A stretch of DNA of 64,000 nucleotides from Escherichia coli (GCF_024223415.1 NZ_CP100500.1); one strand, 5' to 3'. Shown: positions 46,002-50,462, counted from the stretch's first letter. The notes: generated from the sequence alone by a model not told the origin. Translations and numbers: made by a program.

Positions 46002-46175
46002 TCAGATTAAATTAATCTTGACATCATAGCTTTCAAGACCCGTCATTTTTTCCCGTGCGGTAAACTGAATACTGGTAACTTCTTTCCCGGTCTTTTTCTT
46101 AAGTTCAATAATTTTTTTTGTTATATATTCAGAAATATCTGCTTCTGCTTTTGTTTTTAAGTTTTCAATATTCAT
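46002..46175 (-). CDS. gnsB: GnsB (GnsA/GnsB family), 57 aa
   Basis: ATG with AGAGGA SD; MNIENLKTKAEADISEYITKKIIELKKKTGKEVTSIQFTAREKMTGLESYDVKINLI; not on track. Confidence 0.8.
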   Translation of the reverse strand: MNIENLKTKAEADISEYITKKIIELKKKTGKEVTSIQFTAREKMTGLESYDVKINLI

Positions 46176-46346
46176 CATTTCCTCTTTTAGTCTGTTATGA
46201 CTTTCCAGTTACACAGTAAGTCGATTATATGGTGCAAACGTGTAAAAGATAAGATGAAACATCGCAATAATCAACATACGATAGTCTAAATTTTACACAA
46301 ACAGACAAAGAGAATTTTCCTGAATTATCAATACAATAGCATCAAA

Positions 46347-46577
46347 TCAACTCAAGAGCCTTATTGCTGCTTCCAGAATTTCTTCTGAAGTAACATGTCG
46401 ATCCGCGGCTACATAAATGACTTTATGATCTCCGGTCAGAGATGGAAACCCTGCGGCCATTACAGTAAGGTGTGTTTTTTCGCCATTTGGATATTCACGC
46501 ATGATGGTGTTAACTCCAGTCATCGCTGGCACTACCACTGCTGGTTCAGAGTTAAAAAAAACTATGATTTTTTTCAT
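46347..46577 (-). CDS. Small prophage protein (YnfN-like), about 76 aa
   Basis: Start at MKKIIVFFNSEPAVVV; position between gnsB and cspI. Confidence 0.55.
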   Translation of the reverse strand: MKKIIVFFNSEPAVVVPAMTGVNTIMREYPNGEKTHLTVMAAGFPSLTGDHKVIYVAADRHVTSEEILEAAIRLLS

Positions 46578-46848
46578 GATGTTACCGTAGTATGTGAGTA
46601 TCCATCGAATAGATACCAAGCAAAAAAGCTCCCGAAGGAGCCTTCATTTTCACTTTTTTAAATCCAACGACAGACGGCTGGCATTTAAGTATTGTGAAAT
46701 ATTATCAAATGTAATCATCATTGATTTACAAAAGATACATTTTGCCCCGAAAGGATTCATGTCAGAAACATCAAAAGATGATGTTCTATACTGGGAACCA
46801 TGACAACACGGGCATCTAAAGTGAATATGGTTTGTAATATTGTCTACC

Positions 46849-47061
46849 TCAAAGCGCCACTACATGAACAGCGGCAGGACCTTTAGGTCCGTTCTCAATA
46901 CCAAATTCAACTTCCTGATTCTCAGTTAATGTTTTGAAATCGTTGCTCTGAATTGCTGAGAAATGGACAAACACATCTTTGCTGCCATCTTTCGGCGTGA
47001 TGAAACCAAAACCTTTTTCAGGGTTAAACCATTTCACTAAACCAGTCATTTTGTTAGACAT
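46849..47061 (-). CDS. cspI: Cold-shock protein CspI (CspA family), 70 aa
   Basis: RNP1/RNP2 motifs KGFGFI and VFVHF. Confidence 0.9.
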
Positions 47062-47424
47062 AATTATTACCTTTTGAAGAAATTAGCCCTTGGGCAGAAT
47101 GGTCCGAAAAAAAATATCAGAGAGAAAAACCAACAAGGAAATCTCAAGAGGTACAAATAATAAAATTATAACAATGACTGCTTCAGATAAATTTGTAACA
47201 AACCAGAACACCATTAACGCATGATTAACCACCCATAGCAAGGATTACTTTTGTAAAGAAAAACACAGCAATGAAAGAATAGCTTTATTTATTAATAATA
47301 ACGTGTCATTCTGATTAAGACCTTTTATCTTACCCTTAAGATTTCAGGAATTTTGGCTCATGGAAGAGTCCTTTTTATTTAAATTTTACATTCCGCGATG
47401 TAAATGTTCCGATTTAATATTACC

Positions 47425-47922
47425 CTACATTTGATGCTTTTTATCTCTTAAAGATTCATAGATCTGTTGACAAGTCACTCCTGCGATGTAGCGTTCGTCA
47501 GCAATTTCAGCATAAAACTGAGCTTCTGCTGCAATATCTCCGAGCATGTTGGTGAGCATTCCTTCGGCGGTTTTGGTTGTTTTGCCTCTGACGGCAGCGG
47601 CAAGATCTGCGGTATGCTTCGCTGCGTCAAGGCGTATGGCATATTTTTTTGCTTCGGCACGCAACTGGTTAACACTATCAGACAGATAAGCAGCCCTGGC
47701 AGAAATTTCAGCAGATTTCTGTTGTGCATCTTTAACAGCCTCATCACGGGCTATAGTTCGCCCCTGTTCAATTATTCGAGCAGCAAATTGAGCATTTACC
47801 TCTTGTGATAATGCGGCAGCATCACGTTCCGCCCATTTTTTTTGCCATCCTCTGTCGCTCCAGACATTTCCGACGATAAATCCTGACAACACGAGAAAAA
47901 TCACCATGAATATCTGATTCAC
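47425..47922 (-). CDS. rzpQ: Rz-like i-spanin (RzpQ), 165 aa
   Basis: N-terminal TM plus coiled coil; downstream of endolysin. Confidence 0.85.
47475..47729 (-). CDS. rzoQ: Rz1-like o-spanin lipoprotein embedded in the +1 frame of Rz
   Basis: Lipobox LTSC then proline-rich segment; fully nested in rzpQ. Confidence 0.6.
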
Positions 47923-48452
47923 TGTTCTATCCCCCAGCAGGTTAATGCGCTCTCCTGGTCACGACGAATAACCTGACCGTAACAGTTATTTGAACGAATG
48001 CGGCAATCGCGTCCGCCATCCTTAATCCACCAGCGAATCGCTTCGCATGCACCTTTACGATCACCAGCATTCAGCCGCTTATAAAACGTCGACGGGAAAC
48101 ACTTACCGGGGCCAATGTTATAGGGACAAAATGACGCGATACCCGCTTTTTGTGGTTCGGTCAGTGGTACTTTAATATTGCGCTCCACCCATGCCAGCGC
48201 CTTATCACGCTCAATGGCGTTGACCTGGTCGCATTTTTCCTTCGACAGTTTCATATTGGGAAAAACGGTTTTTCCATCCACCACTGTGGCACCCCGACAG
48301 ATGGTCCATATGCCAGAACCATCGCGGTATGCCATTGTGTGGTTACCTTCTTTTTCGTCCAGAAACTGGTCAAGTATCTGAGGAGCAGATGCGCCAGCAC
48401 CAATCAGCGCCAGAACGGCAGCCGACAGGCCGTATCTGATTTTTGTGTTCAT
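47919..48452 (-). CDS. rrrQ: SAR endolysin (phage lysozyme with N-terminal signal-arrest-release domain), 177 aa
   Basis: N-terminal weakly hydrophobic Gly/Ala-rich segment ([16 protein letters not shown]) then lysozyme domain, as P21-type endolysins. Confidence 0.9.
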
Positions 48453-48760
48453 ATATATTTATGATGAGCACGCTCGTGCTTATTGGCAGGATTTTCAATC
48501 TTAAAGGAGTACTGATGCTGCAGATAAGACTCAACTTTTTCTGACAATTTTTCTGCTACTTCCAGGAAGACTTGCCGGACGCTCCTTCTGGCTGCTGCCT
48601 CATAAAACTCCAGCGCAGCTCCTTCAACACGGTCCATGGCGACATCCAGGTCAAAAATTTCACCGTCAAAGCGTTCTTTGTCCTGTAAGGCTACAGTTAC
48701 CGTAACTTTATTCTCAAAATTACGGACTCCTTTCACAACCAGTTCATAGTCTTGAGTCAT
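48449..48760 (-). CDS. ydfR: YdfR (DUF1327), 103 aa
   Basis: ORF between holin and endolysin. Confidence 0.8.
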   Translation of the reverse strand: MTQDYELVVKGVRNFENKVTVTVALQDKERFDGEIFDLDVAMDRVEGAALEFYEAAARRSVRQVFLEVAEKLSEKVESYLQHQYSFKIENPANKHERAHHKYI

Positions 48761-48764
48761 TGGA

Positions 48765-48980
48765 TTACTCTCCTCTCGCAGCCTTACGCCTGTCTTCTTT
48801 AATCTTGAAATAAAGATTTGTCAGATACGTCAGCAGGCCAAAAACCAGGCTACCCAGCACACCGATTGCAGCCCACTGTGACGGAGTTACTTTATCGAGT
48901 AACTGCAATGCCCAGAAACCAGCATTACCCGCCGATGTGCCATAGGCAACACCTGTTGTTAACTTATCCATTGATTTCAT
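48765..48980 (-). CDS. essQ: Class II holin / pinholin (S21-like) with dual-start motif MKSM, 71 aa
   Basis: Start at [14 protein letters not shown]; two TM segments; C-terminal charged tail. Confidence 0.85.
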
Positions 48981-49199
48981 ATCCTCACCCCGATGTACAC
49001 GGATGGTGCAATATGTTTGAAAAGATCGGAGTCTACGGGGTAGTTTTGACAGCACACGCTGTTCTCAACGGCGCTAAAGAAACATACACATTAAAAATGT
49101 GAGTAATTATTTTGAAAGAAAGTCATATATAAAATAATAATACGAGAAATGTTTTCATATTTAGTGTACTGTATACGGCCATTTATACAGGAAAAGCCT

Positions 49200-49370
49200 A
49201 TGTCAGAACGTAAAGACTCAAAATCACGCCGTAATTATCTCGTTAAATGTTCCTGCCCAAACTGCACCCAAGAGTCAGAACACAGTTTTTCAAGAGTACA
49301 AAAAGGTGCCCTTTTGATCTGCCCTCATTGCAACAAAGTATTCCAGACAAATCTTAAAGCTGTAGCCTGA
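49200..49370 (+). CDS. Small zinc-ribbon protein (2 x CxxC), 56 aa
   Basis: CPNC...CPHC motifs; AGGAAAAG SD. Confidence 0.5.
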   Translation: MSERKDSKSRRNYLVKCSCPNCTQESEHSFSRVQKGALLICPHCNKVFQTNLKAVA

Positions 49371-49431
49371 TTGATTTTATTAGTAACAAGTATTTTTTAT
49401 ATTTTAATAATATATTTAAAGCAGATAATAA

Positions 49432-49452
49432 AAAACCCGCCTGAGCGGGTTT
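49432..49452. terminator. Hairpin terminator (likely bidirectional) between the zinc-ribbon ORF and cspB
   Basis: AACCCGC-ctga-GCGGGTT stem flanked by an A-run and TTTGAG. Confidence 0.45.
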
Positions 49453-49733
49453 GAGATTGTGGTGCTTTTTGTGGGAGTCATCCACTTACGCACTTTGTTT
49501 TGCCATGCCAGCAGTTAGCTTCTGCTGTAAAACTATTCATGCAGCAAACCTGCACTTCACCACAATGGTTAGCATACTTTTCCTGATTAAGATTTTGCCA
49601 AATATGCTGGCCATTGTTTCATGTATTGGACCTCCTTAATTTTTATTAAAGAAATCCAATATTCACTACTCTGTCCGTATCTCTACTCAGGCATCAGCCT
49701 TCTTCGTTATCGTATACAGACGAGCGATGAATT

Positions 49734-49949
49734 TTAATCAGTAATGATGACATTTGCTGCTGCAGGACCTTTAGCACCACTCTCTATAGAGAAGGTAACC
49801 TTTTGACCTTCAAATAAGGTTCGATAATTATCATTCTGAATCGCAGAAAAATGCACAAACACATCTTTACTACCATCAACAGGAGAAATAAAGCCGAAAC
49901 CTTTATCAGCGTTAAACCATTTTACTAAACCAGTCATTTTATTTGACAT
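49734..49949 (-). CDS. cspB: Cold-shock protein CspB, 71 aa
   Basis: CspA-family RNP motifs. Confidence 0.9.
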
Positions 49950-50249
49950 TCTACATTCCTTAACTTGAGCCTTTCGGCATAAATGGTTTGCATAACAGAA
50001 ACGACTTCGTACTTAATTGGAGAGACTCAAAGAAGGAATAAGTGAATAACACCTGAAATGAGAACTGCTTTAGTAAACTACTTCGTATATCGTCTGTTCT
50101 TCAAACCGACGCAATCATTAACGCATAGTTGAACATATGAAGCAATGTTTATTTTAGACATCCAGCCATCTTCAACCCCATCAAAAAACTATAGCTTTCT
50201 TCAGGAACGTGTGTATAGTGCGCCAAGTTATCAGTATTAAGGAATTTTT

Positions 50250-50462
50250 TTGTCCCGTAAAATGACAGGAATTGTCAAAACCTTTGACGGCAAAAGCGGC
50301 AAGGGTCTTATCACCCCATCCGATGGTCGTATCGATGTCCAGCTTCATGTTTCAGCGCTCAATCTCCGCGATGCAGAAGAAATTACCACCGGATTACGCG
50401 TGGAATTTTGCCGGATAAATGGTCTGCGTGGCCCTTCAACTGCCAATGTTTACCTTTCATGA
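50250..50462 (+). CDS. cspF: Cold-shock-like protein CspF, 70 aa
   Basis: Divergent CspA-family member. Confidence 0.9.

Follow-up and report, generated by a model that had tools for sequence, protein, structure and literature searches.

Gene content of the locus

The DNA analyzed here (the window) is a stretch of 64,000 nucleotides from Escherichia coli (GCF_024223415.1, NZ_CP100500.1). Its positions 46002-50462 are the well-known late region of a Qin-type lambdoid prophage, in which self-contained moron genes, among them the cold-shock genes cspI, cspB, and cspF, lie around the lysis genes. The region contains gnsB, ynfN, ynfR, ynfQ, cspI, rzpQ/rzoQ, rrrQ, ydfR, essQ, ynfU, cspB, and cspF. 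An earlier reading of the window, made from the sequence alone, had placed cspI, cspB, cspF, gnsB, and small open reading frames (ORFs) here on both strands. This gene list is borne out by the ORFs, by Pfam and Rfam matches, and by annotated identical chromosomes: at positions 45000-51500, annotated chromosomes of E. coli that bear these very names match the window at 100% identity. The same reading had also counted ydfO among these genes; it lies outside the region, at 45425-45850. The sequence-only reading thus restated the Qin map, which is already known, with cspB, cspF, cspI, and gnsB characterized since the 1990s.

The same genes, in the same order and on the same strands, make up b1549-b1559 (ydfO to ydfT) of the cryptic prophage Qin (Kim) in E. 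coli K-12 MG1655, and the two modules share 98.5% DNA identity over 6.6 kb. Their flanks match too, with ydfI- and ydfJ-sized ORFs at 17320-20152 of the window at the K-12 spacing. Unlike K-12 Qin, which has lost them, the window copy still carries a full-length terminase gene together with portal, capsid, and tail genes; its ynfN encodes 76 amino acids, compared with 51 in K-12 Qin. The module (at least 80% coverage) was found in 1581 of 5426 complete E. coli genomes. We consider it very probable, for the account given below as a whole, that the window carries a structurally complete relative of Qin.

The lysis cassette (47425-48980, minus strand) was identified by Pfam (Phage_holin_2_1 and DUF1327) and annotation, and is ~89% identical to the lysis genes of phage mEp460. 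By Pfam and annotation, its members are essQ (48980-48765), a P21-type holin according to Pfam; ydfR (48760-48449); and the lysozyme gene rrrQ (48452-47919). Annotation adds rzpQ (47922-47425) with rzoQ (47729-47475) embedded in it. The cargo genes occupy two slots. Slot 1, the Q-S interval, holds cspF, cspB, a structured RNA in the cspB 3' untranslated region (UTR), a terminator, and ynfU. Slot 2, the Rz-cos interval, holds cspI-ynfQ-ynfR-ynfN, gnsB, and ydfO. The cargo islands (~44800-47400 and ~48900-50900) have a GC content of 31-40%, below the 44-51% of the lysis cassette and the 50-59% of the terminase genes.

Shiga toxin (Stx)-converting lambdoid phages, with stx between Q and S, and lambda, with bor between Rz and cos, place cargo in the same two late-operon slots as the Qin cargo. 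Expression of stx is largely dependent on Q read-through. In Stx phages, as predicted for the window, the cargo lies 3' of a cassette of Q, late promoter PR', pause, and terminator, and is crossed by Q-modified polymerase (PMC9388147). Unlike stx, cspB and cspI in the window each come with a strong promoter, a thermosensor leader, and a terminator of their own, and three of the cargo genes are antisense to the late transcript.

A predicted late promoter upstream of the cargo

The antiterminator gene Q (ydfT/quuQ; 50884-51636, minus strand) encodes a lambda-Q family protein with an extra zinc-ribbon insert. This assignment comes from Pfam (Antiterm, PF03589; E = 4.2e-54), BLASTP against lambda Q (33% identity, E = 3e-40), annotation, and matches to the Q-lambda structure entries 7UBM and 4MO1 (E = 4.6e-36 for PDB 7UBM). 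The insert, ~48 CxxC-rich residues within residues ~126-185, is absent from lambda Q; a zinc-finger profile, DnaJ CXXCXGXG (PF00684), hits it at E = 1.5e-08.

A putative PR' (50812-50853, minus strand) lies directly 3' of Q, located by a promoter scan and by alignment with lambda PR', from which its function is predicted. Its elements are a -35-like TTTGCA (50853-50848), a -10 TAAAAT (50829-50824), and a sigma-dependent pause element, AACGAT (50817-50812). The window reads TAAAAT-TTTTTC-AACGATGGG where lambda PR' reads TAAATT-TGACTC-AACGATGGG. The aligned stretch between the -35 and -10, a candidate Q binding element, resembles that of lambda (TTTTTCAAAAAATATGGA versus lambda TTATTGAATAAAATTGGG); this Q differs by its 48-amino acid insert. 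A second qut-like site closer to the holin gene was sought; the pause element AACGATGGG occurs only once in the window.

Approximately forty nucleotides past the pause element, a terminator scan and folding identify a tR'-like bidirectional intrinsic terminator (50755-50778, both strands), a GC-rich 10-bp hairpin with U-tracts on both strands. It is the predicted end of a short PR' transcript on the minus strand and of cspF-ynfS transcripts on the plus strand. The predicted minus-strand leader of 78 nt folds at -30.4 kcal/mol (z = -4.75), and the plus strand gives z = -6.37. The whole cassette of PR', pause element, and tR' is conserved in K-12 Qin and in mEp460.

This homology supports a late promoter upstream of all the cargo and of the lysis genes. 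Because PR' directly follows Q, late transcription would run through cspF in antisense, cspB in sense, and ynfU in antisense orientation before it reaches the holin gene. The sequence-only reading had proposed that Q-dependent transcription must traverse the cargo, and the predicted position of PR' supports this; the homology puts the late start upstream, rather than downstream, of the csp genes. Mapping the late promoter cassette by homology would thus fix a geometry that had been assumed, which is a modest gain.

The closest comparison for slot 1 is phage mEp460 (NC_019716). It has a Qin-type Q, a near-identical PR', pause element, and tR', and an ~89% identical holin-ydfR-lysozyme block. 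Homology ends directly after tR' and picks up again 12 nt short of the holin start. In slot 1, mEp460 carries a DNA methyltransferase gene and two hypothetical genes, all co-directional, and no csp gene; its Rz also differs. An evolved derivative, mEp460_ev081, does have the csp/ynfN/gnsB island, where the annotation reads CspG. Since mEp460 combines the same Q, PR', tR', and lysis genes with other cargo, the csp genes are dispensable, and the cargo is exchangeable, for the lytic program.

Self-contained cold-shock units

The cspB promoter (50117-50145, minus strand), as read from the sequence, has a -35 TTGCTT, a 17-nt spacer, and an extended -10 TGcGTTAAT, with +1 at ~50110. The cspB mRNA (49718-50110, minus strand) comprises a cspA-type 5'UTR thermoregulator and the coding sequence (CDS; 49949-49734). 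It was identified by Rfam RF01766 (full-length match at 50110-49718, 158.8 bits, E = 1.7e-41; gathering score 78 bits), with model position 1 at 50110, and by the Pfam cold-shock domain (CSD; PF00313), matched at E = 9.8e-32 and 109.1 bits (gathering score 27 bits). A terminator scan finds a strong intrinsic terminator for cspB (49433-49452, minus strand; z = -4.14) with a U6 tract, ~450 nt before the holin start.

The cspI unit (46822-47241, minus strand) is built in the same way. A -35 TTGCTA (47241-47236) and a TGcGTTAAT with its -10 at 47218-47213, separated by a 17-nt spacer, are followed by a cspA-type 5'UTR and the CDS (47061-46849). The RF01766 match, also full length, runs from 47207 to 46822 (112.8 bits), with model position 1 at 47207, and the CSD match has E = 1.6e-31 and 108.4 bits. 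Both CspB and CspI have the aromatic motifs RNP1 (KGFGFI) and RNP2 (VFVHF). The two genes form 73%-identical direct repeats on either side of the lysis genes.

The csp genes of E. coli that are cold-induced are cspA, cspB, cspE, and cspG, together with cspI (PMC4956666; PMC12562117). A role in host cold-shock physiology, which the sequence-only reading had suggested, is thus established in the literature for cspB and cspI. These genes are also active in a close relative of the prophage. Tritos (prophage 3 of adherent-invasive E. coli LF82, OV696610) is 99% identical over window positions 44549-50452, with the same layout. RNA sequencing of a Tritos lysogen placed CspI 93x, CspB 59x, and YnfN 27x above the prophage background, and the authors of that study call them morons (PMC9928086). 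Thus, the csp genes are not silent: cspI and cspB are expressed in the lysogen of this near-identical phage (PMC9928086). Tritos virions also form plaques on MG1655 (PMC9928086). Tritos differs from the window by a 258-nt deletion (window positions 50453-50710), which clips the last codons of cspF and removes ynfS, and tR' and PR' are kept. Because this segment is deleted in Tritos, a phage can form plaques without ynfS and without an intact cspF 3' end.

The third csp gene, cspF (50250-50462, plus strand), starts with TTG and is antisense to late transcription. It matches the Pfam CSD (E = 1.5e-20, 73.3 bits), with the aromatic RNP1 and RNP2 replaced by KGKGLI and VQLHV, and its product belongs to the divergent CspF/CspH clade (PMC6719143). 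A cspA-type leader (RF01766) was not matched for cspF even at E ≤ 1. Expression of cspF and cspH is very low, and the CspF protein has never been detected (PMC4956666). The proposal that each cargo gene has its own leader and terminators therefore holds for cspB and, roughly, for cspI-ynfQ and gnsB, and fails for cspF, which lacks a cspA-type leader and shares its hairpin with tR'.

By position and composition, the cargo genes look like morons. In mEp460, csp cargo is missing from the same position, and in the window the cargo has its own promoters and terminators and a distinct GC content. The promoters and terminators are clear for cspB and cspI-ynfQ, and weaker for gnsB, cspF, and ynfU. All cargo ORFs are intact. 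The dN/dS values of all cargo paralogue pairs (0.07-0.15; 0.15 for cspF/cspH) indicate purifying selection. That the csp and gns genes are decaying, functionless passengers of a cryptic prophage might be argued from the defective state of K-12 Qin and from the failure to detect CspF (PMC4956666). However, the intact ORFs with dN/dS values of 0.07-0.15, the retention of the module in 1581 genomes and in viable phages, and high expression in lysogens together with cold induction already contradict this idea, which we regard as highly improbable.

A proposed working of the late region

We propose the following working model. On the minus strand, the late operon would run from Q through PR', the pause element, and tR' to slot 1, then through the holin-ydfR-lysozyme-Rz genes to slot 2, and on to the terminase genes. 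The AT-rich moron units in the two slots would jointly constitute a cold-adaptation gene set. In the lysogen, cspB and cspI would be driven by their own cspA-type promoters and controlled by their cspA-type 5'UTR thermosensors. The terminators (tR', that of cspB, the ynfR hairpin, and the post-gnsB hairpin) would shield the lysis and packaging genes from cargo transcription and from basal PR' transcription. Upon induction, Q would load onto polymerase paused at the PR' pause element. The Q-modified polymerase would then read past all of the terminators, past the Rho site in the cspB 5' region, and past the opposing cspF, ynfU, and ydfO, into the lysis and morphogenesis genes.

Cold induction, lysogen expression, and Q processivity enter this model from the literature; the gene identities, RNA leaders, PR' homology, hairpins, compositional islands, and swappable cargo are observed in the DNA. 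In the published model, Q loads at the sigma-dependent pause element, and pause and termination sites do not hold up Q-loaded RNA polymerase over thousands of base pairs (PMC9388147). From the placement of the terminators, we infer that they insulate the lysis and terminase genes.

Some points weigh against this account. The proposed PR' has a poor -35, TTTGCA, followed by a spacer of 18 nt, and the lambda -35 falls in an alignment gap. The PR' start site, the terminator efficiencies, and Q read-through are derived from homology and folding only. The post-gnsB hairpin is weak (z = -1.8), which makes it uncertain whether the terminase genes are shielded from cspI/gnsB transcription. Finally, because cspF is barely expressed and its protein undetected (PMC4956666), the case for cspF as a functional moron comes down to its dN/dS.

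Cargo and late gene expression

The sequence-only reading had suggested that the cargo may modulate late-gene expression. It could do so materially through head-on transcription coming from cspF, ynfU, and ydfO, through extra terminators or Rho sites within cspB, or through strong cold-induced cspB and cspI promoters that feed or block transcription entering the lysis cassette. PR' does appear to lie upstream of cspF and ynfU, both antisense, and of cspB, in sense orientation, and at least three hairpin terminators stand on the late strand ahead of the terminase genes. In addition, the cspB 5' region undergoes Rho-dependent premature termination (PMC7815308). Nevertheless, a Q-loaded polymerase is insensitive to terminators over thousands of base pairs (PMC9388147), and cspF expression is very low (PMC4956666). 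Phages that carry the module are viable, and mEp460 runs the same cassette with different cargo. The strong cspB terminator points to insulation rather than coupling. Six phage records, including PhiR42_1, HannyBb, Tritos, 2H10, and PhiR63_1, hold at least 80% of the module. We infer that late expression is affected by the cargo to a minor degree at most, and material modulation seems unlikely to us.

A related idea is that the phage itself benefits from the csp genes, whose products would act as RNA chaperones and antiterminators that aid late transcription or translation in the cold, when hairpins are stabilized. The cargo would then be a module that makes lytic growth cold-competent. According to the part of PMC4956666 that summarizes Bae et al. 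(2000), CspA-family proteins antiterminate by melting hairpins. Across 80 viral loci, divergent ones included, the csp genes flank the lysis cassette near-invariantly. CSD genes are rare in phages overall (71 of 50,697 phage records), which makes csp retention here notable. However, the same gene set occurs in chromosomal, non-prophage settings in Citrobacter, Kluyvera, and the Escherichia core locus. Because it is found there, the csp set works for the cell without a phage, which disfavors a phage-serving role. Moreover, relatives without csp genes lyse normally, and, in one study, CspB gave no stimulation of transcription in vitro (PMC12562117). We therefore rate a phage-serving role as somewhat less likely even than modulation by the cargo.

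The alternative touches on one older lead. Work attributed to Hanna and Liu in 1998 reportedly found that nascent RNA is bound by CspE, which disturbs antitermination by Q at lambda PR'; this is mentioned as a lead only. A literature search on a link between CspE and Q antitermination, and on csp morons in lambdoid phages, returned no match among the papers searched.

Chromosomal cold-shock loci and the direction of exchange

The Escherichia core locus cspH-cspG-ymcF-ymcE-gnsA, present in 5379 of 5426 E. coli genomes, is collinear with the two prophage islands joined together, minus the lysis cassette. We compared window positions 46002-47065 and 49835-50458 with the K-12 core locus (1964-3241 of the extracted record). 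The 5' regions of cspF/cspB and cspH/cspG share 75.7% identity over 635 nt, cspI-ynfQ and cspG-ymcF share 74.5% over 364 nt, and gnsB and gnsA share 73%. The core locus lacks the lysis genes, ynfU, and the RNA element of the cspB 3'UTR, and has ymcE in place of ynfR-ynfN. The identity profile of cspG flips inside the CDS, at approximately +60 to +80, from cspB-like (promoter, 5'UTR, and cspH side) to cspI-like (3' half and ymcF side).

Related clusters also occur outside of phages. A degenerate DNA pattern for the zinc-ribbon motif of YnfQ/YmcF recovered 74 loci, nearly all in Enterobacteriaceae. In Citrobacter (C. gillenii), a cspI-like/ymcF/(ynfN)/gnsB-like cluster lies between ABC-transporter and housekeeping genes, a non-phage setting. 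In Kluyvera, cspH-like and cspB-like/ynfU/ymcF/ynfN genes lie just upstream of thrS and pheST, again in a non-phage setting. Yokenella also holds a related csp-type cluster in a chromosomal setting. Because such clusters occur outside phages, the cargo is best described as a coherent mobile cold-shock gene set that comprises csp genes, ynfQ/ymcF, ynfN, ynfU, gnsA/B, and a conserved RNA.

Either direction of exchange could account for the core locus. It might have arisen from a Qin-like late region through recombination between csp genes (csp x csp) that deleted the lysis cassette, or phages might have captured chromosomal clusters. A phage origin is favored by the switch of cspG from cspB-like to cspI-like within its CDS, so that cspG looks like a junction between the 5' part of cspB and the 3' part of cspI. 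The viral loci point the same way: in the 80 IMG/VR loci recovered with GnsB, the near-invariant layout has the lysis genes between the two islands, and the contiguous arrangement never occurs. In contrast, the chromosomal clusters of Citrobacter and Kluyvera show both kinds of island outside phages, which speaks against a choice between the two directions. That the set also exists on chromosomes of other genera bears on the exchange of stress modules between phages and chromosomes.

A conserved RNA in the cspB 3'UTR

Between the cspB stop codon and its terminator, we find a conserved structured RNA of 112 nt (49458-49569, minus strand, the cspB sense), with a closing stem and three hairpins, defined by a covariance model with controls. 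Its K-12 counterpart lies at 11064-11175 of the extracted K-12 stretch. The window RNA folds into the closing stem and three or four hairpins, with the minimum free energy structure equal to the centroid (z = -2.7). Conservation is 68-79% in divergent viral contigs, and the element is also kept in chromosomal clusters of Kluyvera, Yokenella, and Pluralibacter.

A covariance model and pattern scan of IMG/VR gave 85 matches, 27 of them distinct, which were used for the alignment. In this 27-sequence alignment, 92.7% of paired cells are complementary, versus 19-63% when the partners are slid. Changes on both sides of a pair occur in 38 cells, versus 0-11 in slid controls, and the covariation score is 0.272, versus at most 0.145. 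For example, pair 89-102 appears as UA (10), AU (8), and GC (8), and pair 10-112 as GC (15), AU (7), and GU (3). The many G-U pairs identify the RNA strand as the cspB sense. These values come from an alignment fitted to the model and drawn from few clades, with the structure derived from the window sequence.

In all 31 of the diverse loci, the element is flanked by a cspB-like gene (64-98% identity) on one side and by convergent ynfU on the other. In Qin-like phages, as in the chromosomal cold-shock clusters of several Enterobacteriaceae, it accompanies cspB-type genes. Searches of Rfam and of the K-12 RefSeq annotation yielded no corresponding family or feature, and a literature search found no paper describing a cspB 3'UTR element. 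Across 78 sources, the covariance model found no further copy next to cspG, cspI, or any other csp gene.

Two candidates were set aside. Short ORFs within the element (MLTIVVKCRFAA and MNSFTAEANCWHGKTKCVSG) were rejected as the cause of conservation, as their ATGs are not conserved in divergent copies. An Rfam Trp_leader match at 49427-49511 scored 21.7 bits (gathering score, 41 bits; E = 0.71) and is put down to chance, being the cspB terminator hairpin. Separately, an 11-codon ORF in the cspB 3' region (MKQWPAYLAKS; 49622-49587, minus strand) has a perfect AAGGAGG Shine-Dalgarno sequence 8 nt upstream, and is kept only in close E. coli-type copies.

We tentatively suggest that the element might represent an undescribed family of structured regulatory RNA, either a stability or cold-response element of the cspB 3'UTR or a 3'UTR-derived small RNA. 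Given its place on the late strand, directly upstream of the holin gene, it could also couple read-through into the lysis cassette to temperature. This candidate structured RNA is a modest lead beyond the known Qin map.

Small genes and neighboring features

Downstream of cspI, the minus strand carries ynfQ, ynfR, and ynfN in tight succession, with spacers of 10, 2, and 4 nt, respectively. The zinc-ribbon gene ynfQ (46838-46650), with an ATT start, is supported by annotation, sequence, and its paralogy with ymcF. The other two are annotated: ynfR (46647-46582) and ynfN (46577-46347). A terminator-like hairpin within ynfR (46641-46628) has a UUCG loop, a U6 tract, and z = -2.89. Non-canonical start codons are common to paralogues, with ATT in ynfQ (46836-46838) and ymcF, and TTG in cspF (50250-50252) and cspH. 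The conservation of these ATT and TTG starts suggests deliberately low translation.

The gnsB gene (46002-46175, minus strand) matches Pfam GnsAB_toxin (PF08178, E = 3.3e-35, 120.2 bits) over profile positions 1-54 of 54. GnsB and GnsA share 65% amino acid identity, with a dN/dS of 0.14. Homology between YnfN and YmcE, whose gene is the reported partner of gnsA, was rejected, as the two proteins gave no alignment at all. The terminator scan finds a weak terminator-like hairpin after gnsB (45954-45975, minus strand; z = -1.79). The convergent ydfO gene (45425-45850, plus strand) encodes a DUF1398 protein, identified by Pfam (PF07166, E = 2.2e-43) and annotation.

In slot 1, ynfU (49200-49370, plus strand) encodes a zinc-ribbon small protein (Pfam PF23499, E = 4.7e-31, and annotation) and is convergent with cspB and with late transcription. 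The small ORF ynfS (50517-50606, plus strand) is annotated in the identical record and in K-12. Beyond slot 2, the packaging genes on the minus strand, taken from the ORFs and the annotation of relatives, are a DUF1441 small-terminase-like ORF (44382-43825) and a full-length large terminase gene (43816-41717).

Elsewhere in the window, three further Rfam families match at gathering score: STnc560, an Hfq-binding small RNA, at 10574-10787 (minus strand); IS009, at 22208-22406 (minus strand), within the tail-fiber assembly region; and DicF, a small RNA of the Qin immunity region, at 60751-60802 (plus strand).

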